Shown here piece after piece: positions 532-35,021 of a stretch of DNA of 64,000 bases. Numbering within the stretch: the first letter of the stretch is position 1; the number at the start of each line of letters is the position of its first letter. Below the pieces are notes generated by a model, which ran no database searches, had not been told where the DNA came from, and was given only the letters and a program-made list of their open reading frames with translations. Source of the DNA: Patescibacteria group bacterium (GTDB lineage Bacteria > Patescibacteriota > Patescibacteriia > UBA10025 > JAHIVO01). Made by a program: the position numbers and the translations under genes. Where the stretch lies: contig JBAZKE010000001.1 in NCBI GenBank assembly GCA_041650915.1, forward strand, positions 315,284 to 379,283, read 5' to 3'.

Positions 532-3500
532 ATGGATACTGTCATCATTGCATGCGTTGCAGCGATCGCACTGATTATCGTTATATCCGCGCTGCTCAAT
601 AACATTCCCAGGAAAATCGGCCTGAGGAACGTCTGGCGCCGTAAGAGCAATACGGCGCTCGTTGTCATCGGTTCAATGATCGCGACAGCGCTGATCACGT
701 CGTCTTTGGTGTTGCAGGATTCCATGGATAAAACGTTCTATAACCAGGTACTGGAAAATGAGGGTGAAATCGACGCGAATATCAGCTTTGAGCCGAAGAC
801 TGAAACCGCAACTCCGTTTACTGCGGTGGCAGGAGCGGATCTGGACGCCCTCATGCAGCGCTTAACCGGTGACAGGGTTGACGGCGCCATGCCTGTTTTT
901 CGGATCATGACGTCCCCGTTTTCTATCAATGAAGCAGGGGAGCCGCAGCTGCAGTCGTACAATATTCTGCTCACGGCGCTGAGACCGGAAGATGCCGCTG
1001 CGTTCGGTTCGGATCCGGTATCCATGGATTTCGGGGATTCGAATACGAATGTCATTCTCTCGACCCAGCTTGCGGACGAGCTCGAGGCGCAGGTTGGCAC
1101 GAGGATAAGCTTTACCTATTATGAGCAGTCATTCCAGCTGACGGTGCACAGCATCATGGAGCCGAACGGGATCGTGGGGAACCGCGGGTACGTGGTTAAC
1201 CGGTCTTTGCTGACCGGTGCATTTGGCCTGCCGGAAAATTCTGGGCAGTACATCCTGGTTTCGCACGCAGGCGGCGTCCGCCCGGAAGAATATGACGGCC
1301 CCGCGTTTACCACTGTGTTGGACGGGCTGCTGGCAAGCGCCAGCCCAGAGGGTATTACGAGCATCGTTACCGAGACAAAAGAGCAAGCCCTGGACGGCTA
1401 CGGCATGGGGAATTTCGTTCTGCTGCTGCTGGCCATCAGCATTTTCGGATCGTGCGTCGGCACGCTGCTGATTATCAGCCTGTATTCCATGCTGGCAGCC
1501 GAGCGCAAGTCGGAGATGGGAATCATGCGCGCGATCGGCTTCACGCGCGGCGGCCTGGTAAAAACGTTTGTCTATGAAGGCTTCGTGTATTCGCTTCTTG
1601 CATCACTGACCGGCACCGTGGTCGGCATCGGGCTCGGGAGCTGGCTCGTGAATTCCTTCGTGGGCATGTTCGGCGGCCTTTTTGATGCGCTCCAGCAAGG
1701 CCCGATGCTCGATTTCGAGTTCGACTATACGCTCCGAAGCCTGGCCATCGGCGCTTCCTCCGGCTTTATTTTCACCATCATCACAGTCATTATTTCCAGT
1801 TATGCGTTTAGCAAGATCAATATCGTGAACGCCATCCGGCGCTTGCCCGACATCACAGTATACCGGTGGAAGCTCGGGACGGTCGTTTCGCTTGCCTGGA
1901 AATGCTTGCTGCTCGTAATCGGCGCGGCAAGCGTGGTGCTTTCCACCATGCTGCCTGACATGCTCACCACGATGCGCGGACAGGCTGGATCAGCCGTTGC
2001 TAACATGACGGAATCCAGCTACAAAATGACAACGGACGTAGCTTGCGGTTACCTGCAGTATTTCGGCGTGTTGGTCCTCATCTGGATAGCGGCGCTTGCC
2101 CTTATCCAGTTTGTTAAAATCGCCAAACAGCGCGACATTTCCCGCTGGACATTCCGGGCGGCGAGCGTACTGAGCATCGTCTTCAATGCGTTTATCCAGC
2201 GGTTTCCCGCGATCGACAAGGCGATCGAGCATGATACCGGCGCCGTGCTGTTTTTCTTTTCTGGCGGCATGCTGGTCATTTCGGCCGCGGTGCTGATAGC
2301 GTTCAGCCTCGACGCTATTGTCAAGCTGATTGACCTGTTTTTTCGGCGGTTTGGGAAGCTCAACCTGGTGTTCCGCATGGGACTGCGGTATCCGGACGCG
2401 AATGCATCCCGAACCGGCATGACGCTCATCATGTTTTCCCTGATAATCTACCTAGTTGTTTTTATCAGCAGCATTAAAACTTCGATCAATACGGCTACGG
2501 ACGAAATGCGCACCAATGCGCTCGGGGGCTATAGCATTGACATTGTTTTCAGCCAGAACGCCGAACAAGCGGAACTGTCCGATTCGATACAAATACTCCA
2601 GTCTAGTGCCGGCGTACAATCAGCCGCCGGGGTGATAGAAATGCCGGTAGTACTGCCGAATAGTGCGCCGCTCAAATCAGCGTCCGCTGCTGCAGCCGCC
2701 ATGCATGAGATACCGGAACATGCGTTTGGCACCCGGCTCGTGGCCGCTCCGGCTGAGTTCATGAAATCCATGGAGCCGGTGTTCGAGGCTATCCATCCTG
2801 ATTACGCTGATCCTGATGCGGTGTGGGCTGCCTTGGAACAAGACAGCTCAAAAATAGTTTTAGGAGGAGGATTCGACCGGCGTGAAGGCGAGGAGCTGGC
2901 TGACGGCACTAAGCTGCAAGTTTTTGTGCCAGGGGATACTATCACCATCGCTGACCAGGCGAATGCTGTGGCGGCTGAAAAAACCATCATCGCCACGATC
3001 AAGTACGAAGGCGAGGGCTTCGGCGGCATTAATAATGAGTATACCAGCCAGCTGATCGGCGGGCCAAACAGCGTAGCTGACACGTTTGGAGCAGAGTTGG
3101 TCAATACGTACGCGTATCGCGAGCTTTTGGTCATTGAAAAAGAGGGGATCATGAAAGCAGACCTGGTGAAGCAGATAAAAAAAGACCTCCTTGGCAAGAA
3201 TATCTCCTACATTATGGATATCGACCTGATGCTCGGCGCCGCATTTGAGCTTATAAATTCGATTTTGCTTTTATTGCAGGGCTTTTTATCCCTCAACCTG
3301 CTTATCGGTTCGGCTGGTCTCGCGATCATCATCGCCCGCGCGGTGCATGAGCGCCGCCAGCAGATCGGCATGCTGCGTTCGCTCGGATTCAAGCGGTCTA
3401 TGGTACTCGGCGTCTTTTTCATCGAATCGACTTTCGTCGCCCTCCTCAGCATTGCCATCGGCGTCAGCATGGGGCTTGTGTCTGTCAATACGTTTTTCAA

Positions 3501-3660
3501 AATCATGATGGAGGGGGAAGGCATGAAGCTCGTGTATCCGTTCCAGGAAATCGGCATCATCGTTGGCGGGGTGTACCTCTTGGCGATCCTGCTGTCGATG
3601 TGGCCGGCATTCAAAGCTTCGCGCTTGTCTCCGGTTGAGGCGACCAATTACCCTGAATAA
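532..3660 (+). CDS. ABC transporter permease, MacB/FtsX type, with two FtsX 4-TM modules and large extracytoplasmic domains
   Basis: 1042 aa with N-terminal TM. Two FtsX-like segments (ERKSEMGIMRAIGFTRGG... and ERRQQIGMLRSLGFKRS...). Followed 24 nt later by a cognate ATPase. Confidence 0.8.
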   Translation: MDTVIIACVAAIALIIVISALLNNIPRKIGLRNVWRRKSNTALVVIGSMIATALITSSLVLQDSMDKTFYNQVLENEGEIDANISFEPKTETATPFTAVAGADLDALMQRLTGDRVDGAMPVFRIMTSPFSINEAGEPQLQSYNILLTALRPEDAAAFGSDPVSMDFGDSNTNVILSTQLADELEAQVGTRISFTYYEQSFQLTVHSIMEPNGIVGNRGYVVNRSLLTGAFGLPENSGQYILVSHAGGVRPEEYDGPAFTTVLDGLLASASPEGITSIVTETKEQALDGYGMGNFVLLLLAISIFGSCVGTLLIISLYSMLAAERKSEMGIMRAIGFTRGGLVKTFVYEGFVYSLLASLTGTVVGIGLGSWLVNSFVGMFGGLFDALQQGPMLDFEFDYTLRSLAIGASSGFIFTIITVIISSYAFSKINIVNAIRRLPDITVYRWKLGTVVSLAWKCLLLVIGAASVVLSTMLPDMLTTMRGQAGSAVANMTESSYKMTTDVACGYLQYFGVLVLIWIAALALIQFVKIAKQRDISRWTFRAASVLSIVFNAFIQRFPAIDKAIEHDTGAVLFFFSGGMLVISAAVLIAFSLDAIVKLIDLFFRRFGKLNLVFRMGLRYPDANASRTGMTLIMFSLIIYLVVFISSIKTSINTATDEMRTNALGGYSIDIVFSQNAEQAELSDSIQILQSSAGVQSAAGVIEMPVVLPNSAPLKSASAAAAAMHEIPEHAFGTRLVAAPAEFMKSMEPVFEAIHPDYADPDAVWAALEQDSSKIVLGGGFDRREGEELADGTKLQVFVPGDTITIADQANAVAAEKTIIATIKYEGEGFGGINNEYTSQLIGGPNSVADTFGAELVNTYAYRELLVIEKEGIMKADLVKQIKKDLLGKNISYIMDIDLMLGAAFELINSILLLLQGFLSLNLLIGSAGLAIIIARAVHERRQQIGMLRSLGFKRSMVLGVFFIESTFVALLSIAIGVSMGLVSVNTFFKIMMEGEGMKLVYPFQEIGIIVGGVYLLAILLSMWPAFKASRLSPVEATNYPE

Positions 3661-3683
3661 TTAACTTTACTTTTCATAATCAT

Positions 3684-4388
3684 ATGGACACCTCTTCAAC
3701 AAAACCGATCGTCGAGGTCAAAAAACTCTCCAAGATATTCAACCAAGGCCGTGATAATGAAGTCGCGGCTGTCCAGGACGTGAATCTGGCGGTGCACCGC
3801 GGTGAAATCATCAGCATCATGGGCCCGGCGGTTTCCGGCAAGACGACTTTATTGAACTGCATTTCCGGCATTGATACGGCGACCGCCGGTGAGGTCATTA
3901 TCGACGGCAATGACCTTCAGGGCATGAAAGACAAGAAAAAAACCCGCTACCGGGCGGAAAAAATGGGTTTTATTTTCCAGACGTTTAACCTGATTCCCGT
4001 GCTCTCCGCGCTGGAAAATGTAGAGATCCCTTTGCTCATCGCGAAGGTCGGTTACCGAGAGGCCAAGGAAAAGGCGATTGCCATGCTTGAAATCGTGGGC
4101 CTAAAAGACCGCCTGCACCACAAGCCCAATGAGCTTTCCGGCGGGCAGCAGCAGCGGGTCACCATCGCCCGGGCGCTGGTGCACAATCCGGCCATCATCT
4201 GGGCGGACGAGCCGACCGGCAACCTGGATACAAAAACGGCGCATGAAATCATCGACCTGATGCTGAAGATCAACGGCGAGCGCAAGGAAACGTTCGTCAT
4301 GGTGACGCACGATCAAGATACTGCCAAGCGCACCCAGCGCATTCTACACATGGACAGCGGCATGATCGTCGACCAGAGCCTGTCGTAG
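3684..4388 (+). CDS. ABC transporter ATP-binding protein (MacB/LolD-like)
   Basis: Walker A GPAVSGKTT, ABC signature LSGGQQQRVTIARAL, Walker B IIWADEPTGNLD. Confidence 0.9.
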   Translation: MDTSSTKPIVEVKKLSKIFNQGRDNEVAAVQDVNLAVHRGEIISIMGPAVSGKTTLLNCISGIDTATAGEVIIDGNDLQGMKDKKKTRYRAEKMGFIFQTFNLIPVLSALENVEIPLLIAKVGYREAKEKAIAMLEIVGLKDRLHHKPNELSGGQQQRVTIARALVHNPAIIWADEPTGNLDTKTAHEIIDLMLKINGERKETFVMVTHDQDTAKRTQRILHMDSGMIVDQSLS

Positions 4389-4465: not shown

Positions 4466-4495
4466 AAAACCGCCCCAGTAAACAGGGGCGGTTTT
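4466..4495. terminator. Bidirectional intrinsic terminator between convergent genes
   Basis: aaaaCCGCCCC-agtaaaca-GGGGCGgtttt. GC stem flanked by an A-run and a T-run. Confidence 0.7.
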
Positions 4496-4513
4496 GTGAA
4501 AAGCATTTGAGGA

Positions 4514-6001
4514 TTACTCGCTTTTAACCGGCGCGTCTTCTGCCGTTTCCTGCAGCAGTATCGGTTCGTCCAATTGGTCGCTGAAGAATTCACTGACCAA
4601 AGGTACGATGACCTGCTTTTTGTAGAAATATTCGACGGGCGGCGTTCCGATGACGGGAAACACGAGTGCGGGCACGAAGAATTCGGAAAATTGGCTACCG
4701 GTATTTTCATACGCGGCGACGTAGGCGATGACCGGATCCCCGAGCTCAACTTCGTATGTATTTTCCGGGCTGCCGTAGCTGTATTCGTAGAATCCGCCGC
4801 GAGCGGCGATGTCCAGTATCTTTTCGGCATCGGTTTCAATCGGATACGGAGAGCTTTGCATATTGAGCGCGATAATGCTGGAGACCCCGGCTACTTTATT
4901 TTCGATGAGGTTGACATCCGCCTGGAGGCCGACCGTATCCCCAAACGTCGTGTAGACGCGCTTCCCGTCGATGAGCAGCGGGTACATTACCTGCAGGGAG
5001 TCGGGTACGTACGCCTCCTCAGTACCGTCGGCATTCTGGGTTTTCTGTTCGAGCCAGTACTTATTGATTACAGGCTCGCCGTAATTCTCAACGTTGATCT
5101 TGTGATCCTCGATGAAGCGGTCGGCCAGGCTGATAATTTCAGCATCTGCAGGGATATCGCCTTCGGCTAGGGGCTGATACTCAGGGCAGACATCGCCGTC
5201 GCATCGGCTGTACTGGTACCAGGTGTTATTGGCGGAGATATTCAGATAACCGGTGAGGAGGTTGACCTCAATAGTGTAGCCATACTCTGCATCCTGCGTG
5301 AGGCTGAAGTTCTGGAGCTGTGCCTGGCTGAACGTCGAGAGGTCAACCGCATCAAGGCCGAAATTTTTTAGGTATTCAGCGGCCTGGCTGCCGGTTGTTG
5401 CGTCTGTTACTTTTTTATACACCAGCAGCGTATCCTGCGGCAGTGCCAGATCACCGTTGTAAACGTAGTGATAGTTGATGCCCTCAAAACCGGGAATCGC
5501 TGCTGCGCCGGGTTCGGTGCCCTGCACGTCGGGTGCGGTTGCCGTACCGCCCCCGCCGTATCCGCCTCCGCTCTCGCCCGCCGTAGGCTGCAAGCTGTCG
5601 ACCGGAAGATCACCGAATGCCCGGGTGGATAGCTCTTCAACACCCAGTCCATTCGAAGACAGCTGCGCTGGGGCGCCATCATTGCCCGTGCCGTTGGAAG
5701 TTATGAGGATAATGACGATAACGGCTGCGGTGCCAACGGCGGTCAGCGTGACATTGCGGAATGAGAAGAGCTTCACCCACGAAAATCCGCGCACATCTTC
5801 CTTTGGCAGCTGCTCGAACTCCCGCGCTTTCTGGAGCAGTGCAGCCCGGAGTTCCTTCTTGAAGGCTTCGTCGATTTCGGCCTTCGGCTTTTTTTGCATG
5901 AATTTCACGATTACTTTTTTCAGCTCAACTTCGTACCGGCGGAGCTTCGGTTCGATCGCATACAGCTCCTGCAGGATGCCCGTCATGTCTTTTTCGTTCA
6001 T
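4514..6001 (-). CDS. Putative membrane-spanning anti-sigma factor (cytoplasmic helical N-domain, one TM, large extracytoplasmic domain)
   Basis: Its ATG overlaps the stop of the upstream ECF sigma gene (ATGA). It has a charged helical N-terminus, a TM around residue 85-105, a Gly-rich linker and an extracellular domain of about 380 aa. No zinc anti-sigma motif, so the call rests on context. Confidence 0.5.
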   Translation of the reverse strand: MNEKDMTGILQELYAIEPKLRRYEVELKKVIVKFMQKKPKAEIDEAFKKELRAALLQKAREFEQLPKEDVRGFSWVKLFSFRNVTLTAVGTAAVIVIILITSNGTGNDGAPAQLSSNGLGVEELSTRAFGDLPVDSLQPTAGESGGGYGGGGTATAPDVQGTEPGAAAIPGFEGINYHYVYNGDLALPQDTLLVYKKVTDATTGSQAAEYLKNFGLDAVDLSTFSQAQLQNFSLTQDAEYGYTIEVNLLTGYLNISANNTWYQYSRCDGDVCPEYQPLAEGDIPADAEIISLADRFIEDHKINVENYGEPVINKYWLEQKTQNADGTEEAYVPDSLQVMYPLLIDGKRVYTTFGDTVGLQADVNLIENKVAGVSSIIALNMQSSPYPIETDAEKILDIAARGGFYEYSYGSPENTYEVELGDPVIAYVAAYENTGSQFSEFFVPALVFPVIGTPPVEYFYKKQVIVPLVSEFFSDQLDEPILLQETAEDAPVKSE

Positions 6002-6573
6002 ATGGTTATGCTGTTAATAATAATTACGATAAGCGAGGCGAGTGCGAACGCCATGTCTTCGCGGAGCCGCGCCATGGTGCGGGAGAATGCCACTTTGCAG
6101 CTCGCAGCTGATTTTCCCGTAATCTCTGCGATCTCGCGGTAGCTCAGCTGGTCCCACAGCTTCATGACAACGATCTCCCGGTGCTCGCGCTGAATCGTTG
6201 CGAGGTACTGCCTGACCGCATCGAGGCTGCGTTTCGCATCCAGGTCAACCGGGATTTCCCGGCCGTCATGCAGCCCGTACGCTCCGTCGATGCCCTCGAC
6301 GTTTTTTGCCGTACGGTAGTGGTCGATAACGCCGTTGCGTGCGATCCGGTACAGCCACGACGAGAAGGAGCCACGCGCGCTGTCAAAACGCGGCAGCGCT
6401 TCCATCGCCTTCATGAACGCCTGGCTCGTCAGGTCCTCGGCTGTTTCCCGGTGCATCGTTTTGTAGTAGATGAACCGGTAGATTTTATCCGCATAGCGGT
6501 CGTACAGTCGGGCGAACTGGCCCATATCCCCGCGCTGGCACTTTTTTATGATGTCTTTTTCGTCCATACGCAC
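5998..6573 (-). CDS. ECF-type RNA polymerase sigma factor (sigma-70 region 2 and region 4)
   Basis: Region 2-like RIARNGVIDHYR. Region 4 HTH LSYREIAEITGKSAASCKVAFSRTMARLRE. 191 aa. Confidence 0.85.
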   Translation of the reverse strand: MRMDEKDIIKKCQRGDMGQFARLYDRYADKIYRFIYYKTMHRETAEDLTSQAFMKAMEALPRFDSARGSFSSWLYRIARNGVIDHYRTAKNVEGIDGAYGLHDGREIPVDLDAKRSLDAVRQYLATIQREHREIVVMKLWDQLSYREIAEITGKSAASCKVAFSRTMARLREDMAFALASLIVIIINSITI

Positions 6574-6913
6574 TTATGAACTTCCTATACCTATATAACG
6601 AATGCGAAGCGAAAAGGTAACACTACCGTAATTGTACCACGCCTGCCAATGGAGCAAATGCTCAAATTGCAGCGGCAGTTGGTGGCCTGCGGGAGCTGAT
6701 GTAATCTTTTAGCACGCCTGGCGCGCTTGATCGTGCTTTTGGAAGGGGCACTCTATGCATCTGCTGTTTTTTGGGCGGGTTCAAAAAACGCTTCCCAAGC
6801 CCACCATGCGTGTTCTGCCGTGACCACAGTGCGGCCATGAATCAGGGAAGATTGGTGCTGTTCAGCACCGAGCATCGCTGTTTTGCAAACACTGCCCGGG
6901 ATTTTTCCGCTAC

Positions 6914-6952
6914 AAAAAAAACCGAGGTTCCTGAACAGGGAACCTCGTTTTT
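6914..6952. terminator. Orphan bidirectional intrinsic terminator in the sigma/giant-gene divergent intergenic region
   Basis: aaaaaaaaCCGAGGTTCC-tgaacag-GGAACCTCGttttt. Perfect 9-bp GC-rich stem with an A-run and a T-run. Confidence 0.7.
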
Positions 6953-7080
6953 AATCAATGCTTGTGGGATTGCTCTTGTATGGCAGTCGGGCCGTAGGCC
7001 GATATAAATTTACTAGGACTTACAACAAAAATGGAGTAAGCGGGCATGCTTGGCATGTGCACATCTTCCAGGTTTATAGA

Positions 7081-7109
7081 TTGACAAAAGCCAATTTTCC
7101 CGCTATAAT
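7081..7109 (+). promoter_or_regulatory. Consensus sigma-70 promoter for the giant surface-protein gene
   Basis: TTGACA (7081-7086), 17-nt spacer, TATAAT (7104-7109). Lies about 175 nt upstream of the ATG at 7285. The leader ends in an AT-rich tract. Confidence 0.5.
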
Positions 7110-7284
7110 AACGGCATACTACAAAAACACAAACCAGCCATAGGTTGAGCCGGTAAGGCCTATTGCCTATTATGGTATTTGGCGGGGAAATTCATTATGG
7201 GTTAGGAAGCGGCGCAGTGGACTGACAGCGAGCGCTGAGGTTTTTTTAATATTTTTTATATTTAATCAACGAATAAATCCGCGT

Positions 7285-10200
7285 ATGAGAGTTAGAAAAA
7301 TTGCGAAATTAATCAACGCAGCAGTAGCAGTGCTGACAATCTTCGGCATGCTCGGGCCGTTTTCCATGGGTGGCGCCCTCGTTGCCTCTGCGGCTGGGAC
7401 TGCAACGGTCATCGGCGTTGTTACCGAACCGGACGGCGTAACGCCGGTGGTAGGCGCATACGTCAATACCCACACTTCGTCGTATGGAGAATATACGTCA
7501 GTATGGACCGATTCTAACGGGGCGTTTTCGATCTCGGACGTCACATCCGGATCAAAAATTCTCGAAGTAAATGCCTACGATTCCGTATATCCGAATCCGC
7601 CGATGCTAACCATCACCGTACCGACCTCCGGCACGCTTGATGTCGGCGTCCTGCGGCTTAAGAATCCGAATGTTTCCGGGGTCGTAATGAAAGCAGATGG
7701 CGTGACGCCCGTTTCAGGCGCATGGGTAAGCGTGCACGACGGTAATTGGACTTTTTCACAAAGCGATTCCACTGGCGAGGATGGCGCATTCGGTTTTTAT
7801 CTGTCCTCCACCGGCACCTATACGATCGAAGTGTCGGCAAGCGATCCCGACGAAGTTGCGCCTGCTGCGCAAAATTTCACTTTTACGGCAGGGGGCACGA
7901 AAACATTTACGGGTGCTTCTGCTTTGAAGATGACGGTACCGGGCATGCGGGGAAAAATTATCATGCCGAACGGGACGGATCCGGCGCAATACGTCAGCGT
8001 GAACGTACACGACAATTCATACAGCTACCAGAATAGCGAATGGGTGACGACCGATACGAGCGGCATTTTCAAGACAAAATCGCTCGCGACCGGCTCCTAT
8101 ACGCTCGATGTAAACGCCTCGTCAGCCGGCAACGGGCTTATCGCTCCCGACAGTATTACCGTCAGCCTGACAGCCGGGACGACCAACACCGAGTATTTCG
8201 ATGATCCAATCCAGCTCATACAGGCCCAGAAAACGATTCAGGGAACCGTGCGGAAGCCGAATGGGGCCAAGGTCACGGATGCAACCGTATCAGCGTGGCC
8301 AATGGGCGGCGGTAATGGTTACGCATCTGCCCAGACAAACAGCCAAGGGCAGTATTCGATGCTCGTCGGAACCGGGAAATGGCAGGTGATGGTATCTCCG
8401 CAGTGGAGCGGTGACGTGCCGCCGTCATGGGGATATTATGACATGCCGGAAACAGTAACTTTCACAAAGGCGAATACGGTCGCTGAAAGCGGGACTGCCG
8501 ATTTTGAAGTATCTAGTTTTGATGCAACTATCCGAGGGCGCGTGCTTATGCCAAACGGCAGCGCTGCCGGCCAATCGGATGCGAACGTTTCGGCATGGAG
8601 TCCGGGCGGCATGGGCGGAGGTAACAATGCAAACCTTGACGCTAACGGTTATTTTTCACTTCCCGTTCCTGCGGGCACGTACCAATTGGAAATTATGCCA
8701 TTTAATAACGGGCTATACGGAGCGCCTGAACTTGACCTGGTGACGGTTGCAAGCGGCGGCAACTTGAATCTCGGTACGCTGCGATTGCTGGAAAAAAACG
8801 AATTCGTGACCGGCAAAATCGTTGATTCAAATGGCACGCCGCTCGAGAATCAGAACGTGAACGCCTGGAAGCCGTCCGGATGGGGATGGGGCTGGGCAAC
8901 GACTGACGAGAATGGCGAGTATACGCTCGGCTTGACTTCCGGTACGTGGTTTATCGATGCGATGCCCAGTGGTGGCATGGGAGGCGGAGAAGGAGACAGC
9001 GAGATAACGTATGTAAAGAGCGGCGCTCCGCAGAAAGTGGTTTTATCTTTAGGGGAAACCGAGAGCAATATCAATTTCGAGTTCACGATCGCTGATGCAA
9101 CAATCAATGGCACCGTGCAAGACAGTGAAGGCACTGTGCTCACCGACCTGTACTCCTGGATCGAGGCAACGGATGTCAACCGGACCTGGAGCAGTGAGGG
9201 CGATATGGGCGGGTGCAGCGGGCTCGGGGGCCAAGTCCAGGGCGGCAGTTTTGCGATGAAAGTGCCCCAGGGGACGTATGTCATGAACCTGTTCATGCCG
9301 TGGGGATCGGATTATACGGCGGCATCACAGGAATCGGTAACAGTCGGTGCGGGCGAAACGTATGACGGCGCCGTGGTGACCGTGCTACCGAACAACGCCA
9401 CGATCACCGGTTCGCTCCTGGACCAGGACGGTAATCCCATCACTGATGTATGGGGTGAAGTATTTGCAGATAATGGCATGGGCGGCAACCAGTGGGCTCA
9501 GTTTGAGGATGGCACATATACGCTGCGCGTTGCAGCAGGCGCCTGGCATATAGGATACTGGATTGATCCGATGTCCGGATACCTTTCGAATCCCGGAAGC
9601 GATAACACGGTGACGGCAGCAGCGGATGAAACCACGACCTATGATTTGACCCTGTTGAAAGCGGATTCGACCATCGCCGGCACGGTTGTCGACCCAGACG
9701 GCAATCCGATCTCGAATGCCTGGGTATCGGCGGATACGGAGCTTGGCGGCCGCCAGAGCACGGCAGACCAATCGATGTTTTTCGGCCCCATGTTCAACCA
9801 GGGAAATATTACGGATGAAAACGGGGCATTTTCCTTTGACGTGCCGGAAGGGACATATTTCGTATCAGCATCGCTTCCTCCATCCGAGGGCTATATCAAC
9901 CCCAAGGCTCAGCAGGTGGCGGTGAGCCCGGATAGTCCCGCTGACGTGGCGCTTGAATTCAGGATTGCGGACGGCACTATCTCCGGAACAGTCACGCTCG
10001 ATGGCGAGCCAAATGCATCGTACGTATGGGGCTGGTCAGAAGAAGGAGGCGCATCAGAAACGACAACGGTGGATGGCGCATATTCATTGAATGTCATTAA
10101 GGACGAAACGTGGCATATCGGCGCGATCTACGAAACCACAACGACATTTTACCGCAGCGATGAGAACATTATTGACGTTCCATCAAGCGGCACCGCAACA

Positions 10201-12276
10201 AAAGACCTTACCCTGCTCGAAACCGACATCACTATTCCGGCTGCCGAGACGGCTACCTTCGATTCCACGGTCGCTAAAATCATCAAGCTGACGGACGGGA
10301 CCGAGCTTAATATGCCGGCATACAGCATAGCGACGGAAGGGAACGTAACGGTGACGGCAACGCCAAAAGCGCAGGTCGCTTCAACCGCTGCGGCAAAGCC
10401 GATTGCGCTGGCGTATGATTTCGTTGCGAAGAATGAGCAAAACCAGACGATTTCCACGTTCAACAGCAGCGTAACGGTCAAGATCCCGTACACTCAGGCC
10501 CAGCTTGATGCGCTTGGCATCACGGAAGAGGATATCGTGCCGATGTATTACGATGAAGCGTCTGGCACCTGGAAAACGGTGGATAATGTCGTGGTTGATG
10601 CGGAGAATGACTTTATCATTTTTACCGTAGACCACTTCACCAGCTTCGCGATCGTCACGCACCAGGTAGCGATGCAGGCCGATGGCGATGAGGACCACCT
10701 ATCAATCACCATTACGAAACCGGCGACGGACATGACGGTGTACGCGCCGTTAGTAACGGTCGAGGGCACCGTGTCAGATGCCGATGCATCCCTCGCCGTA
10801 AGCGTTAACGACGGGACGGCAGATGACGTCACTGTCGGCGCTGATGGCACATTCACGAGCACGGTGCAGCTCCAGCCTGGTGTCAATACCGTTGCGTTTG
10901 AAGCGACAAGCGGAGGCGGGACAGCAGGAACCTCATTCATTATCACGTACCTGACCAGCATTGATCCGAACGCTGATCCCTCCACCGTTGCAACTGGCGC
11001 AGAGCGAAGCATCGCCGCGATGCCGGTTAACGGGGGCCCGCAGGTGCGCGTCTATGATGCCGAAGGCAACCTCACCGCATCCTTCTTCGCGTACAACAGC
11101 GCTCTGCGCGGCGAATTTGGCGTAGTGACGGCTGACATCAACGGGGACGGAACATGGGAAATCATAACCTATCCGAAAGAAGGCTTTCCCGGCCACGTGC
11201 GTGGGTTTGACCTCGAAGGCAATTTACTCGGCGACTTTTTCGCATACCAAGCGGAGTACCGGGGTGGCATCAGCGTGAACGCGGCGGATGTGAATGGCGA
11301 TGGCAATGCGGATCTCGTGGTTACGCCCGTTGTCGGTTCGAATGTTCGCGTGTACACGTTCAATACGGACGAGGATGCGTTTGAGCTTCTGGACTGGGAA
11401 ATGGCGTATGGCGACGCCTTCCGCGGGAACATGAGTGTCGCGGTAGGGGATATTGACGCCAACGGCACGGCGGAGATCGCCGTAGCTCCCGTTTCCGCGG
11501 GCGGCCCGAACGTACGGGTGTATGCGTATAACGCATCCATTGAGCAGCTCGAACTTTCCGACTGGTTTATGGCGTACGATGAATCGTACCGCGGCGGCGT
11601 GAACGTCTCGCTCGCGAATGTTACGGGCGATGGCGCGAAAGAACTCGTGGTTGCCCCGGCTTCCGCGGGCGGCCCGAACGTACGGGTGTACGGGTATGCC
11701 GACGGTACCTATGAGCTCGTTGGCTGGTTTATGGCGTACGACGCAACGTACCGCGGCGGCGTGAATCTGCGGTGCTCTGACGTTGATGCGGACGGACTGT
11801 ATGACATCATTACGACCCCGACCAACGGGTCAACGAACGTCCGGATTTTCACCGAGAATGAAACCGCAGACGGTTTTGAGCTGCTCGACTGGTTTTTCGC
11901 CTACGGTGCTGATTCTCGCGGCGGAGCGGCCATTTCCATTGCAAACATGGATGGCGACCTGTATCCCGAAATCGTGACTGTCCCGTCTTTCGGCGGCCCG
12001 AACGTTCGCGCCTATGAATATGATCCGGATGCCGGCGGGATTGCGCTTCTCGATTGGGGCATGGCATATGCAGAAGACTACCGCGGCTCGCTTAATGTTT
12101 CCGTTGCGGATTTTGACGGTGACGGCACCTCCGAGCTCGTTATTGCGCCGGCTGCAAATGGCGGCCCGAATGTCAGGATATTCTCGCTTGTTGACGGTTC
12201 ATTGACGCTAGACGCGTGGTTTATGGGATTTGCCGAAACCTTCCGCGGCGGCGTAGTAACCGCTTCAGTGTTGTAG
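7285..12276 (+). CDS. Giant secreted surface protein with about 10 carboxypeptidase-regulatory-like (Ig/transthyretin-fold) domains, Big-like domains and a C-terminal 8-blade FG-GAP/VCBS-type beta-propeller
   Basis: 1663 aa with a signal peptide. Repeated G-x-V-x-x-x-D/NG-x-P-x-x-x-A-x-V modules. C-terminal 56-aa repeats GGPNVRVY...DWFMAYD..YRGG..V...D..GDG..E.V.AP. Confidence 0.8.
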   Translation: MRVRKIAKLINAAVAVLTIFGMLGPFSMGGALVASAAGTATVIGVVTEPDGVTPVVGAYVNTHTSSYGEYTSVWTDSNGAFSISDVTSGSKILEVNAYDSVYPNPPMLTITVPTSGTLDVGVLRLKNPNVSGVVMKADGVTPVSGAWVSVHDGNWTFSQSDSTGEDGAFGFYLSSTGTYTIEVSASDPDEVAPAAQNFTFTAGGTKTFTGASALKMTVPGMRGKIIMPNGTDPAQYVSVNVHDNSYSYQNSEWVTTDTSGIFKTKSLATGSYTLDVNASSAGNGLIAPDSITVSLTAGTTNTEYFDDPIQLIQAQKTIQGTVRKPNGAKVTDATVSAWPMGGGNGYASAQTNSQGQYSMLVGTGKWQVMVSPQWSGDVPPSWGYYDMPETVTFTKANTVAESGTADFEVSSFDATIRGRVLMPNGSAAGQSDANVSAWSPGGMGGGNNANLDANGYFSLPVPAGTYQLEIMPFNNGLYGAPELDLVTVASGGNLNLGTLRLLEKNEFVTGKIVDSNGTPLENQNVNAWKPSGWGWGWATTDENGEYTLGLTSGTWFIDAMPSGGMGGGEGDSEITYVKSGAPQKVVLSLGETESNINFEFTIADATINGTVQDSEGTVLTDLYSWIEATDVNRTWSSEGDMGGCSGLGGQVQGGSFAMKVPQGTYVMNLFMPWGSDYTAASQESVTVGAGETYDGAVVTVLPNNATITGSLLDQDGNPITDVWGEVFADNGMGGNQWAQFEDGTYTLRVAAGAWHIGYWIDPMSGYLSNPGSDNTVTAAADETTTYDLTLLKADSTIAGTVVDPDGNPISNAWVSADTELGGRQSTADQSMFFGPMFNQGNITDENGAFSFDVPEGTYFVSASLPPSEGYINPKAQQVAVSPDSPADVALEFRIADGTISGTVTLDGEPNASYVWGWSEEGGASETTTVDGAYSLNVIKDETWHIGAIYETTTTFYRSDENIIDVPSSGTATKDLTLLETDITIPAAETATFDSTVAKIIKLTDGTELNMPAYSIATEGNVTVTATPKAQVASTAAAKPIALAYDFVAKNEQNQTISTFNSSVTVKIPYTQAQLDALGITEEDIVPMYYDEASGTWKTVDNVVVDAENDFIIFTVDHFTSFAIVTHQVAMQADGDEDHLSITITKPATDMTVYAPLVTVEGTVSDADASLAVSVNDGTADDVTVGADGTFTSTVQLQPGVNTVAFEATSGGGTAGTSFIITYLTSIDPNADPSTVATGAERSIAAMPVNGGPQVRVYDAEGNLTASFFAYNSALRGEFGVVTADINGDGTWEIITYPKEGFPGHVRGFDLEGNLLGDFFAYQAEYRGGISVNAADVNGDGNADLVVTPVVGSNVRVYTFNTDEDAFELLDWEMAYGDAFRGNMSVAVGDIDANGTAEIAVAPVSAGGPNVRVYAYNASIEQLELSDWFMAYDESYRGGVNVSLANVTGDGAKELVVAPASAGGPNVRVYGYADGTYELVGWFMAYDATYRGGVNLRCSDVDADGLYDIITTPTNGSTNVRIFTENETADGFELLDWFFAYGADSRGGAAISIANMDGDLYPEIVTVPSFGGPNVRAYEYDPDAGGIALLDWGMAYAEDYRGSLNVSVADFDGDGTSELVIAPAANGGPNVRIFSLVDGSLTLDAWFMGFAETFRGGVVTASVL
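11020..12240 (+). repeat. Intragenic tandem DNA repeats (period 168 nt, about 8 units) encoding the FG-GAP blades
   Basis: The unit ttccgcgggcggcccgaacgtacgggtgta recurs at 11493 and 11661. Neighbouring units are near-identical (gactggtttatggcgtacga...cgcggcggcgtgaa). Confidence 0.8.
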
Positions 12277-12310
12277 ACAGTTTTTTTCGGCATGCAATGA
12301 CAACGTTAAT

Positions 12311-12338
12311 CCCGCCCCGGATACAACGCCGGGGCGGG
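12311..12338. other. GC-rich hairpin without a U-tract after the giant gene
   Basis: CCCGCCCCGG-atacaacg-CCGGGGCGGG. Confidence 0.3.
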
Positions 12339-12366
12339 ACAGTATAACAAAACATCATACCGAATT

Positions 12367-13431
12367 ATGAAAAAAACAGTTGCCATTATCGTTGTAGTTA
12401 TTATGATGTTGGCAGTTGCTGGTGGAGCGTACTGGTTCGGCACGCGGTCGGAAACTGATGATAAAAATACAAATGTGGCAGTAACAAACGCAAACCATGC
12501 GAATTTGAATACGAATACGGCAGCATTGACCAATGCCTCTGCACCCAATGTCACCTACGAAACGTATTCAAATCATGGGACTTTGTACACGTTTGACGTC
12601 GTGTCCGAGTGGACCAGCATCGCGCCGGCCGAAGTCCAGAAATCCATCACCGAGGAGCAGCGCCACGGGTATGAGATCGTGTACTTTTCTTCCAATCCAG
12701 ACTCAGTTGTTCTCGCTGTATCCGAAAAGGCGTCTGCCACCTTGGCAACCATGCCGGCCATTACCGCCGACGATAAATCCGTAGCTCAGGCCAATCCGAA
12801 CGTTACGATCGTGGACGAACGCGTCAACCAGGCGGACGCGCAGACCGAGATGACCGTCCGGTCCGGCGACAGCACCTATACCGTATATTCCCGCTACCTC
12901 ATCATTTCCGCTGCCGGCAGCGAGACTCGCTGGGCGCTCATGGAGGTGACGGTTCCCTCGAGCCGGGCCGCGCAGTACGGTGCCGCCGCAGCCCATTTGC
13001 TCGATTCCTTGCAGATCGCCGGGTCGAACGCGAACACTGGCCAAGCCGGCGATGCCGGAGGTTTCAGCGCAGCGGGCGAGAAGATCAACGAGCTTGCCTA
13101 CCGCCAGAATTTTTCTGCGATTGATCTCTGCTCACTGAAGAAAGACGCCAGCCCGGAGACGGCACGGGCCGGCATTGCCAGCTTGGATTATGAAACCGAG
13201 CAGCTTTCGTACAGGGTCGTCACGACCAACGCCATTACCGAACAGACCACCCTGACGCTTAAAACGTACGACTACGCAGCCGGCCAGGTTTTTGCCGGCG
13301 AACAGCAGCTGGACGTCATGCCCGGCACCAACAGCTTATGCTGCTTTTCCGCGCCAGGCACCGGCCGGTACCAGTACCTATTCTACTACGGCACTGACCT
13401 GGTCAAGGCGCTTGAACTCAGCTCAGAGTAG
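12367..13431 (+). CDS. Membrane-anchored extracytoplasmic protein (N-terminal TM, Asn/Thr-rich linker), paralogue 1
   Basis: 354 aa. TM IIVVVIMMLAVAGGAYWF. C-terminal motif GTNSLCCFSAPGTGRYQY shared with the next gene. Confidence 0.6.
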   Translation: MKKTVAIIVVVIMMLAVAGGAYWFGTRSETDDKNTNVAVTNANHANLNTNTAALTNASAPNVTYETYSNHGTLYTFDVVSEWTSIAPAEVQKSITEEQRHGYEIVYFSSNPDSVVLAVSEKASATLATMPAITADDKSVAQANPNVTIVDERVNQADAQTEMTVRSGDSTYTVYSRYLIISAAGSETRWALMEVTVPSSRAAQYGAAAAHLLDSLQIAGSNANTGQAGDAGGFSAAGEKINELAYRQNFSAIDLCSLKKDASPETARAGIASLDYETEQLSYRVVTTNAITEQTTLTLKTYDYAAGQVFAGEQQLDVMPGTNSLCCFSAPGTGRYQYLFYYGTDLVKALELSSE

Positions 13432-13450
13432 CCAGAATTTTTAACGATTA

Positions 13451-14305
13451 ATGATCAATCATATGGGAGACGAGCAAATGCAGCAAAAAAAATCTAATAC
13501 AATGGCACTGATTGTCATTATTGCCATCGTAGTGATCGGCGCGGCTGCGGCAGTCTATTTCGTTACGAAGGGCGAAAAGAATTCAAATAGCGTCGCGACG
13601 GTCAACACTGCACAGAATACGAACACGGCCGTGACGGAAGCGCCATACACTATGTCTGGCAATACGAAAGTCTTTTCCCTTGAGCTGGTTAACGGCCAAT
13701 TGAATTATAAAACGATGACTGTGTATGCCGGCGATTCAGTCCAGATCAAGCTTACCAGTGACGGCCAGCCGGTTGATTTCCAGTTCCAGAATGTGCCCGA
13801 GGCCGTTTCCACAGCCGGCATTTTCAATACCACTATCCAGGAGAATGACCAGGGCGGCACCTATTACCTGATTTGCGCTGACAACACCTGCGGCAGCATT
13901 GCCGTAACCGTCGTTCCAAAAGCCAACGTCAACGCTTCGGCAAGCAACGCCAACGCCTCAACCAACGCCGCTTCCGCGGCCGAGATCACCAAGGTGGAAT
14001 TGCAGCGCATCCCGGCGGGAACGACTTTCAGCCCGACCGATACGTATGAAACAACCACCAGTTTCGAGGTTGGCGACCTGTTCGGCTTGAGCGTCACCGG
14101 CAATTTTGCCGCAGGCACGACGCTCGCCCATACGTTCACCGACAGCACCGGGGCGGAAATCGAGACGCAATCCCAGCACCCGGACCTACAAGCAGGCACC
14201 AACGGCTCCTGCTGCTACAGCCTGCCCTTGACAGCCGGTTCCTACAACCTCAAGTTGTTCGTCAACGGAGCCGCGGCGCAGAGCGTCCCGATTACCCTCG
14301 AGTAA
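13451..14305 (+). CDS. Membrane-anchored extracytoplasmic protein, paralogue 2 (start may be the ATG at 13478)
   Basis: 284 aa. TM ALIVIIAIVVIGAAAAVYF. C-terminal GTNGSCCYSLPLTAGSYNL is homologous to the C-terminus of the preceding gene. Confidence 0.6.
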   Translation: MINHMGDEQMQQKKSNTMALIVIIAIVVIGAAAAVYFVTKGEKNSNSVATVNTAQNTNTAVTEAPYTMSGNTKVFSLELVNGQLNYKTMTVYAGDSVQIKLTSDGQPVDFQFQNVPEAVSTAGIFNTTIQENDQGGTYYLICADNTCGSIAVTVVPKANVNASASNANASTNAASAAEITKVELQRIPAGTTFSPTDTYETTTSFEVGDLFGLSVTGNFAAGTTLAHTFTDSTGAEIETQSQHPDLQAGTNGSCCYSLPLTAGSYNLKLFVNGAAAQSVPITLE

Positions 14306-15148: not shown

Positions 15149-15269
15149 TTTCGCATTCATCAAAACAGCCGAGCGGCGCGGATTGCGGTAAAAAAAAGAC
15201 GCACTGGGGGTTTTAATCCCAGTGCGTGTTTGCGGAACGAACGTAGTAGGCGTGTTTCAGGCTGCGCCG

Positions 15270-16787
15270 CTACACATGGTACAGCGGGAAGTACTTTTCC
15301 TCCATATACTGCTCCCAGTACTTCGGATTGAGTCCCTCGCCGGTGGCGCGCGTCAGGACATTATCCATGGACTCGAAGTGCCCGGTTGCGTGGACGTTTT
15401 TGCGGAGCCACTCCAAGAGTGCGGAGAAGTTGCCCTGCCTAAACTGGTCTTCCCAGTCCGGGTGGGCGATCGCGAATGCGGCAAAGAGCTGGCCCGAAGC
15501 GAGGTTTCCGAACGTGTACGTCGGAAAATAGCCGAAGTACCCCGACGGGAAGTGGACATCCTGGAGGATGCCTTCCGCGGGAGTAGCCGGCCGGTACCCA
15601 ACAAACTGGAGCACCTGCTCGTTGAAGAAGTCGGGGGCGTCATCGACCGACAGATCGCCGCTCAGGAGCGCGAGCTCGGTTATGAACCGGGCGAGGATAT
15701 GGCCATTGTACGTAGCCTCGTCAGCCTCGACCCGTATCGGGCTCGGCTTCACCGCATTGATCGCGAGGTAGAACTCACCGACCGTGGATCCGTAGAATCC
15801 CGGAAACGACATCTGGAGATGGCGGAACCAGTATTCCCAGAACGGCTTGGACCGGCAGACGAGGTTCTCGTACATGCGCGATTGCGACTCGTGGATGCCG
15901 AGCGACAGGAACAGGCACGCATTGTCGACGGGCCACATTTCAGCGGGCGCGCCCTGCTCGTACATCGCGTGGCCGGCCTCGTGCGGCGTGCCGAACAGCG
16001 CCGCCCGGAGGTCATTCTCGTAGTACCGGGTCGTGATGCGGTGGTCGCCGGAGCTGATCGTTGCCATAAACGGATGCGTCGTTTCCGACAGGTTACCGCG
16101 CGCAAAGTCGTAGCCGAGCGCACGGACGATCGCTTCGACGAGACGCCGTTGCCGCCCTTTCGGAAAGCATCCGGTGAGCAGCGCGGCATTCGGTTTCACC
16201 GTGGACTGCAGTATGCGCTGCATGAATCTCGCCTGCCACCCCTTGACCTGGTCGAGTATCGCGCGGGCCTGCGCCGTGGTCATGCCCGGTTCGAAACCGC
16301 CGAGCAGCTGGTCGTACAGCGAGTCGGCGTTGCCGGGTTCTCCGCCGTGCAGTTCGGCTTCTTCGCGCATCACCGCGAGCACCTCGGCGAGGTGGGGTTT
16401 GAACATGCCGTAGTCCCCGAGTTTCCGAGCTTTGACCCACGTGGCGATCGCAGCTTCGGTGGTAGCCTTCTTGCGGCCCACGAATTCAGAGGGGAGCGCT
16501 TTCGCGCGGTCGTAGCTCGCCTTAAGGCGGCTGACCTGGAGCTGCTGGTACGGCGTGAGCTCACCGATGATGCCGAGGCACGCTTCGATGGCGGCACCGA
16601 CTTCGTCGGCTATGAACGCTGCGTGTGCCTTCTTCCCTGTGCGGCCGGCGAGCCCTGTGCGATACTCTTCGGCGTCCGGCGGCCGGTTTGTTCTGCCGTC
16701 CCACTCAAGGATGTGAGCGATGTTTCCGAGATCGTTCGCTTCCTGAAGTGCGGCGAGCAGTTTGTCAAATAGCGGATGGTTTGCCAC
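15270..16787 (-). CDS. M32-family carboxypeptidase (carboxypeptidase Taq-like zinc metallopeptidase)
   Basis: HEAGHAMYEQG HExxH zinc motif plus the family-specific GIHESQSRMYEN (HESQS) motif. 505 aa. Confidence 0.85.
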   Translation of the reverse strand: MANHPLFDKLLAALQEANDLGNIAHILEWDGRTNRPPDAEEYRTGLAGRTGKKAHAAFIADEVGAAIEACLGIIGELTPYQQLQVSRLKASYDRAKALPSEFVGRKKATTEAAIATWVKARKLGDYGMFKPHLAEVLAVMREEAELHGGEPGNADSLYDQLLGGFEPGMTTAQARAILDQVKGWQARFMQRILQSTVKPNAALLTGCFPKGRQRRLVEAIVRALGYDFARGNLSETTHPFMATISSGDHRITTRYYENDLRAALFGTPHEAGHAMYEQGAPAEMWPVDNACLFLSLGIHESQSRMYENLVCRSKPFWEYWFRHLQMSFPGFYGSTVGEFYLAINAVKPSPIRVEADEATYNGHILARFITELALLSGDLSVDDAPDFFNEQVLQFVGYRPATPAEGILQDVHFPSGYFGYFPTYTFGNLASGQLFAAFAIAHPDWEDQFRQGNFSALLEWLRKNVHATGHFESMDNVLTRATGEGLNPKYWEQYMEEKYFPLYHV

Positions 16788-34088: not shown

Positions 34089-34457
34089 ATGCCAGATGCG
34101 TATACCACATTAACGGAAGAGGAAGAACGCGTTATCATCCGCAAGGGGACTGAGGCGCCGTTTTCTGGTGAATACGAAAAGTACGCTGGGCAGGGCGTGT
34201 ACGCGTGCAAACGGTGCGGTGCGGAGCTATACCGCTCGGATGATAAGTTCGACGCGCGCTGCGGGTGGCCGAGCTTCGATGATGCGATTCCCGGCGCGGT
34301 ACAGCAGGTACCCGATGCCGACGGGATGCGGACGGAGATCGTATGCAGGAACTGCGGCGGGCACCTCGGGCACGTGTTCGAGGGCGAGGGTTTCACCCCC
34401 AAGAATACGCGGCACTGCGTGAACTCGATTTCCCTGAAATTTAAGAAGAAGGAATAG
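34089..34457 (+). CDS. msrB: Peptide-methionine (R)-S-oxide reductase MsrB
   Basis: CGWPSF and [22 protein letters not shown] are SelR/MsrB hallmarks, including the zinc CxxC pairs. Confidence 0.9.
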
Positions 34458-34523: not shown

Positions 34524-35021
34524 ATGAGTGAGAATACACAAACAGCGTACTTCGCGGGCGGATGCTTCTGGGGCGTGGAATACTATTTCCAGAAAGAACC
34601 GGGAGTGCTGAGTACTCGCGTTGGGTATATGGGAGGCAGTGCAGAACATCCGTCATATGAGCAGGTCTGCAGTTCAGCTACCGGCCATGCCGAAACAATC
34701 GAGGTCATCTTTGATCCTGCGAAGACGGATTTTGCATCGCTCGCGAAGCTCTTTTTTGAGATTCACGACCCGGGCCAGCGGAACCGGCAGGGACCTGATA
34801 TCGGCAGCCAGTACCGTTCTGCCATATTTTATGCGACCGCAGAGCAAAAGAAGATATCAGAGCATTTGATCGAAATTTTGAAGGACAAAGGGTTTCCCGT
34901 AGTCACTGAAATAGTACCGGCAGATACGTTTTGGCCCGCGGAAGAGTATCACCAGGCGTACTACCAGAAGAACGGCCAACTGCCATACTGCCACCGGCGC
35001 ATTAAAAAGTTTTTAAACTAA
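34524..35021 (+). CDS. msrA: Peptide-methionine (S)-S-oxide reductase MsrA
   Basis: AYFAGGCFWGVE active-site motif. 165 aa. Confidence 0.9.
   Translation: MSENTQTAYFAGGCFWGVEYYFQKEPGVLSTRVGYMGGSAEHPSYEQVCSSATGHAETIEVIFDPAKTDFASLAKLFFEIHDPGQRNRQGPDIGSQYRSAIFYATAEQKKISEHLIEILKDKGFPVVTEIVPADTFWPAEEYHQAYYQKNGQLPYCHRRIKKFLN

Follow-up and report, generated by a model that had tools for sequence, protein, structure and literature searches.

The Streptomyces sigma factor BldN has as its anti-sigma factor RsbN, a protein in which three helices, connected by flexible linkers, precede a single membrane helix and a 272-amino-acid (aa) ectodomain and which shows no similarity to other anti-sigma factors (a class III anti-sigma domain), is encoded by a direct target gene of BldN and is reported to be confined to Streptomyces (PMC6101532). 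Class I pairs, e.g., SigW-RsiW of Bacillus subtilis and RpoE-RseA of Escherichia coli, are the classical pairs of a membrane anti-sigma factor and a sigma factor of the extracytoplasmic function (ECF) type. A third point of comparison is given by YycH and YycI, extracytoplasmic regulators in Firmicutes, which are not known to have a cytoplasmic domain and whose target is the histidine kinase WalK rather than a sigma factor. Here we describe a locus that recalls each of these in part and coincides with none, found in a 64,000-nucleotide (nt) stretch (hereafter the window) of contig JBAZKE010000001.1 from a Patescibacteria group bacterium (GCA_041650915.1): an ECF sigma gene followed by the gene of a 495-aa membrane protein, which we take as a putative anti-sigma factor, and, divergent from them, the gene of a 1663-aa surface protein (the giant gene) followed by genes for two small anchored proteins, p354 and p284. 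A literature search on ECF sigma factors in Patescibacteria or the candidate phyla radiation, and on YycI-like anti-sigma factors, returned nothing relevant.

We consider it probable that the locus consists of two independent units lying back to back, i.e., an autoregulated operon of an ECF sigma and its membrane anti-sigma (unit 1, 4473-6622, minus strand, comprising an ECF promoter, the sigma gene, the overlapping 495-aa gene and a hairpin) and a separately promoted unit of the giant gene and its followers (unit 2).

A sigma gene coupled to a membrane partner in many Patescibacteria

The coordinates of the five genes and the identity of the sigma factor agree with the original prediction (Table 1). 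The sigma protein contains the Pfam domains Sigma70_r2 (residues 23-90, E 4.8e-20) and Sigma70_r4_2 (residues 118-170, E 5.4e-10) and scores 89.7 bits against the ECF superfamily model TIGR02937 of NCBIfam (cut-off 42.9); the NCBI annotation places its start at the ATG at 6567, which yields 189 aa. The BldN family TIGR02952 was its top NCBIfam match, at 114.2 bits vs. a cut-off of 206.45, and the best PDB sequence match of the sigma-2 domain was likewise BldN (6dxo_A, E 1.7e-22, ca. 50% identity over 86 residues by manual count on the alignment), with SigW as the second-best PDB match of the sigma. Sequence comparison places the sigma factor nearest to the BldN family, of which it is not a member.

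The gene of the 495-aa protein overlaps the stop codon of the sigma gene by 4 nt (ATGA), as already noticed in the original prediction. A word-based search returned five relatives of this protein, and the three neighbourhoods that were inspected all had the gene directly 3' of an ECF sigma gene, in surroundings that were otherwise unrelated. Profile searches of 1.84 billion cluster representatives enlarged the family to 1,709 relatives at E<=1e-3 (1,091 at E<=1e-30), nearly all of about 500 aa and, wherever a source was named, from Patescibacteria, and a scan of GTDB species genomes recovered 63 loci from many lineages of this group. By open reading frame (ORF) and hidden Markov model (HMM) analysis, 58 of the 59 loci that have enough upstream DNA carry a sigma gene as the immediate 5' neighbour of the partner gene, in the same orientation. 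The single exception (L064; related loci are cited by L numbers) is a partner homologue that begins at the membrane helix and is devoid of the cytoplasmic domain; upstream of this orphan, no trace of a sigma gene was found. The sigma/anti-sigma pair had been proposed on context; the proposal has gained from the comparison, since the conserved coupling, the conserved promoter described below and the truncated L064 partner support it by more than context within the window. We recognize unit 1 as a member of a Patescibacteria-wide family consisting of a sigma factor and a membrane partner, with a defined promoter motif, a putative sensor domain of YycH/YycI-like fold and a conserved sigma tail.

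Several records with the gene pair are titled "uncultured Gammaproteobacteria" (L009, L012, L013, L019, L022, L025, L029, L037, L041, L053 and L058); these titles are probably placeholder taxonomy in third party annotation assemblies.

The predicted sigma promoter and the limits of the operon

The motif TGTTAC(C/T)TTT-N11-12-CGT(A/T) precedes the sigma gene in 45 of the 59 related loci, with TGTTAC as the -35 element in 78% of these sites, and it is from these 45 sites that the promoter matrix was built. The site upstream of the sigma gene, whose 3' end lies ca. 22 nt before the start codon, is the sole match of at least 13 bits with allowed spacing within the window; in shuffled copies of the window, matches of 17 bits or more arose at a rate of ca. 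0.1 per 64 kilobases (kb). Throughout 844 kb of DNA flanking the related loci, matches of at least 17 bits were confined to the own-promoter positions of sigma genes and to three second copies, which stand just before the partner gene in L022, L032 and L043 and mark the partner there as a predicted sigma target in its own right. Judged from this motif, the predicted sigma promoter is conserved, specific and autoregulatory. Together with the hairpin at 4487-4473, it delimits a compact, autoregulated operon.

One further resemblance was seen on the opposite strand within the 495-aa gene (5405-5434, plus strand), where a strong match to the ECF -35 element (TGTTACTTTTT) is accompanied by CGTAT. 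Its spacer is one base longer than that of any of the 45 reference sites, it lies over the codons of the VYKKVT motif, and it is probably a chance match.

Table 1 Positions of the features of both units within the window
Feature	Position	Strand	Description
Predicted ECF-type autoregulatory promoter	6595..6622	-	TGTTACCTTTT-N11-CGTTAT; matrix score 28.2 bits
ECF sigma gene	5998..6573	-	191 aa; Pfam, NCBIfam and PDB matches
Codons of hydrophobic sigma tail, AFALASLIVIIINSITI	6001..6051	-	Hydrophobic character kept in homologues
Putative anti-sigma, single-pass membrane protein, 495 aa	4514..6001	-	Family of 1,709; AlphaFold2 model with predicted local distance difference test (pLDDT) 82.3
Cytoplasmic three-helix domain, residues 1-63	5813..6001	-	Proposed sigma-binding module (AlphaFold2)
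Transmembrane helix, residues 85-102	5696..5749	-	AlphaFold2 helix; N-in/C-out
Extracytoplasmic domain, residues 175-473	4583..5479	-	YycH/YycI-like fold by Foldseek
Terminator-like hairpin	4473..4487	-	Directly 3' of the stop codon of the 495-aa gene
Bidirectional intrinsic terminator hairpin	6923..6947	.	Stem of 9-10 pairs, T-runs on both strands
Perfect consensus sigma-70 promoter of giant gene	7081..7109	+	TTGACA-17-TATAAT; 175-nt leader
Secreted surface protein, 1663 aa	7285..12276	+	Signal peptide, 10 Ig (immunoglobulin)-like repeats, two further domains, 8 FG-GAP repeats
p354, N-anchored protein, 354 aa	12367..13431	+	C-terminal domain with CC motif
p284, N-anchored protein, 284 aa	13451..14305	+	Cupredoxin-like domain and C-terminal CC domain

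Architecture of the membrane partner

The 495-aa protein itself had no match in sequence searches of Pfam, NCBIfam or the PDB, and a Pfam search of 89 members gave no match to any model, which makes this a family without a Pfam model. There is neither Cys nor His in residues 1-80 and hence no HxxxCxxC motif, in agreement with the zinc-binding anti-sigma motif having been reported as missing. The AlphaFold2 model was built with an alignment of 89 sequences. It has three cytoplasmic helices (3-16, 18-37 and 45-63), followed by ca. 20 low-confidence residues before the membrane helix, on whose N-terminal side lie R71, K77 and R82; near-invariant positions of the cytoplasmic domain are L10, L13, Y14, P39, F47 and L51. 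A short strand bearing a near-invariant AFG motif and a disordered, Gly-rich linker (residues 132-173) are further parts of the model, and the ectodomain is well predicted. In a Foldseek search of the PDB the ectodomain matched 9a5d_B (YycH, 1.1e-5), 2o3o_B (YycI, 3.2e-5) and 2fgt (YycH, 0.069), with a probability of 1.00 for the top two and no further match below 0.1; an earlier model from a shallower alignment gave the same top matches.

Compared with the class I pairs, the partner lacks both HxxxCxxC and a Pfam anti-sigma domain, its model appears to have three cytoplasmic helices rather than three plus a fourth, its ectodomain fold is different and the -35 element of the associated promoter is TGTTAC, not TGTAAC or GAAC. 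In layout the partner matches RsbN, with its cytoplasmic part of three helices, its single membrane helix and the large ectodomain beyond. This match is architectural only, as the partner has no detectable sequence similarity to RsbN (chain B of 6dxo was absent at E<=10), and the hydrophobic C-terminal tail of the Patescibacteria sigma sets the two systems further apart. With YycH and YycI the partner shares an N-terminal membrane anchor and the fold type of its outer domain; it differs from them in that none of the 89 members has a Pfam YycH/YycI match, template modelling (TM) scores are 0.26-0.48 and no histidine kinase is encoded nearby in the window or in L001-L006. The layout of a membrane anti-sigma factor is present, with an adjacent co-oriented sigma gene, a single membrane helix and a cytoplasmic N-terminus, and the sequence evidence supports the 495-aa protein as a putative anti-sigma factor that would bind the sigma.

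It might instead be a co-transcribed envelope protein or a positive co-factor, e.g., a modulator of the YycH/YycI type, and as such the main product of a small regulon of the sigma. That no known anti-sigma domain is detectable, that the ectodomain resembles regulators of histidine kinases rather than of sigma factors and that three loci carry a dedicated ECF promoter before the partner gene would all fit such a role. However, the strongly conserved 63-residue cytoplasmic helical domain tracks the adjacent sigma gene and is missing in the orphan copy, YycH and YycI are not known to possess a counterpart of it, the kinase on which such a modulator would act is not found beside the pair in the loci named above, and RsbN, whose layout the partner resembles, is a proven anti-sigma factor in spite of having no sequence similarity to others. 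We regard a role other than that of an inhibitor as rather unlikely.

A hydrophobic tail on the sigma factor

Directly after region 4 the sigma factor ends in a hydrophobic tail, which in the window copy comprises 17 uncharged residues with a mean hydropathy of 2.39. Of the 59 sigmas from the related loci, 54 have a tail of at least 10 uncharged residues, and among the 120 closest homologues 111 do (median 12); the ECF survey literature that we examined makes no mention of such a hydrophobic sigma tail. The tail-less sigmas of L038 and L068 are paired with partners that are devoid of helix 1, a pattern that suggests contact between the tail and the partner.

This retention of the tail, its length and hydropathy in the window and the L038/L068 pattern could also be explained by a sigma factor that is controlled mainly via its own tail, serving as a membrane tether or degradation signal, with the partner as a modulator only; yet a standard membrane span needs more than the median uncharged run of 12, a length of 18 is attained by just two or three copies, and the sigmas of L044 and L045 keep the tail even though their partners have no helix 1, which makes this explanation unlikely in our view. 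We are equally doubtful that the tail renders the sigma membrane-tethered (tail-anchored) or tail-gated, i.e., that it inserts in the membrane or docks on helix 1 of the partner. Such control would be workable in Patescibacteria because all of the DNA lies close to the membrane in ultra-small cells. If true, destruction of the anti-sigma factor would not suffice for activation, and the sigma itself would have to be processed or released; ECF control of this kind would be hitherto undescribed and present throughout Patescibacteria.

The giant gene and its followers probably form a separate unit

The divergent genes had been seen, together with the sigma pair, as a candidate envelope-stress surface module in which the giant gene might combine housekeeping and ECF control. 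The perfect sigma-70 promoter and the long leader are indeed present, and TTGACA-17-TATAAT is the sole 12/12 match between 4000 and 15500. The two places to which the original prediction had pointed for ECF-type -35 and -10 elements, the leader of the giant gene and the 12.3-kb region, turned out to score at background level: on the plus strand before the giant gene the ECF matrix reaches at best 8.3 bits vs. 28.2 at the sigma's own promoter (random 727-nt segments of the window have a 90th percentile of 7.6 bits), and before p354 and p284 it attains no more than 3.2 and -1.3 bits, again background.

Neither unit accompanies the other elsewhere. No homologues of the giant protein, p354 or p284 were found in ca. 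65 loci with the sigma pair, and no sigma pair in the ca. 11 loci with homologues of p284 or the giant protein. An orthologue of the giant protein in L072 (51% identical) is preceded by the same 12/12 TTGACA-17-TATAAT, at a distance of 141 nt from the start codon, and has no sigma pair within 10 kb. In the window, the bidirectional terminator lies between the two units. Sigma control of the giant adhesin is thus not supported, and its annotation as a target of the sigma is unwarranted.

We consider it very improbable that the ECF sigma/anti-sigma pair senses envelope stress and, in parallel with the sigma-70 promoter, controls the giant adhesin and the CC-motif proteins: the genes do lie side by side in divergent orientation, ECF sigma factors often govern envelope or surface genes and BldN, the nearest characterized sigma, governs surface sheath proteins (PMC6101532), but the matrix scores, the intervening terminator, the lack of synteny in both directions and the L072 orthologue with its intact sigma-70 promoter all argue to the contrary.

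In the giant protein, residues 41-961 hold 10 CarboxypepD_reg-like repeats and residues 1236-1662 hold 8 FG-GAP-like repeats, as originally proposed and as recovered by an iterated self-HMM and Pfam. Like other large Ig-repeat/FG-GAP surface proteins, it combines both types of repeat, preceded by a signal peptide, and nothing unusual was found in it. The two followers had been described as CC-motif paralogues; what they have in common is a C-terminal domain of ca. 50 residues that surrounds the CC motif (37% identity, E 1e-4), and as this is the only part over which they are alike, sequence comparison speaks for a shared domain and not for full-length paralogy. The p284 family comprises 26 relatives, with all named sources in Patescibacteria, and most of them are lipoproteins (LSGC signal); C142, C147 and the vicinal C254-C255 are invariant. 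The window's p284 has Val at the position of the lipobox Cys, which looks like an uncleaved anchor. Members of this family were traced to ca. 11 loci, with an orthologue of the giant gene nearby in L070 and L072, and homologues of p354 adjoin those of p284 in L073/L075 and L083.

A riboswitch or attenuator in the leader of the giant gene was considered and rejected, because the leader is not unusually structured (structure z-score 0.42) and is poorly conserved relative to L072 except for the promoter and a T-rich stretch. Rfam gave no match in the whole window at gathering thresholds or in 6500-7400 at permissive thresholds, there were no tRNAs, and small ORFs in the 710-base-pair (bp) intergenic region provided no lead. 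Between the sigma promoter and the bidirectional terminator there remains a segment of ca. 300 bp (6623-6947) that holds neither a convincing ORF nor an Rfam match. The terminator is a strong one and has its longer T-run on the minus strand.

A proposed mechanism for unit 1

The analysis shows that the pairing of the genes and the specific promoter motif are conserved, how the domains of the partner are arranged and which fold its ectodomain resembles; from these observations we infer how the sigma may be bound, what kind of signal may reach it, how it may be released and which promoters may make up the rest of its regulon. The cytoplasmic three-helix domain of the partner would hold the sigma at the membrane, and the outer YycH/YycI-like domain would read some state of the cell envelope. 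A signal would then free the sigma to transcribe from TGTTAC(C/T)TTT-N11-12-CGT(A/T) promoters, of which the window shows only the sigma's own, and the operon would be positively autoregulated. Transcription of unit 2 would depend on the perfect housekeeping promoter in front of the giant gene, its adjacency to unit 1 being an accident of this genome.

Several points weigh against this interpretation. The promoter matrix was trained on sites that it later recovered, and its specificity rests on the absence of matches elsewhere; the motif scan covers 64 kb of a 680-kb genome, with any distant targets lying outside it, and a non-canonical ECF promoter before the giant gene is possible. The TM-scores to YycH and YycI are low, and hence we claim only the fold type for the ectodomain. 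In Pfam, searched with 30 N-terminal and 89 full-length members at E<=1, no anti-sigma family was found, and a profile of the N-terminal region detected no anti-sigma chain among all PDB sequences at E<=10; the matches of this profile in both databases were chance helical ones.

Neighbouring genes

In 17 of 65 loci (including L018, L028, L030, L042, L045, L049, L055, L059 and L064-L067), the sigma pair is followed in the same orientation by genes for a rhodanese, MsrA or MsrB. The msrB (34110-34451) and msrA (34524-35012) genes of the window, ca. 28 kb away, have no ECF motif, and a role of the sigma in oxidative stress was set aside as a general explanation: these genes give a lineage-restricted hint only, towards oxidative or envelope protein damage.

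Adjoining the sigma pair in the window (532-4388) are an ATP-binding cassette (ABC) ATPase and an FtsX/MacB-type permease. Related ATPases are encoded near the giant orthologue in L072 (18047-19923) and near the sigma pair in L018, L028, L030, L046 and L061; the association of the ABC ATPase with the sigma pair and the giant orthologue is weak. Beyond unit 2, at 15222-16787, a 516-aa ORF on the plus strand and a 505-aa ORF on the minus strand overlap almost fully, and the former has no Pfam or NCBIfam match.

Implications for Patescibacteria

Patescibacteria have very small genomes with few recognizable regulators, and the ways in which they sense their surroundings are almost uncharted. A pair of a sigma factor and a membrane partner that is conserved throughout the phylum is now defined, and with it a large family of partner proteins that has neither a Pfam nor an NCBIfam model and whose outer domain is YycH/YycI-like, as well as a hydrophobic sigma tail that finds no mention in the ECF survey literature examined. 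The predicted promoter motif can be used directly to read the regulon of the sigma in complete genomes and in metatranscriptomes.

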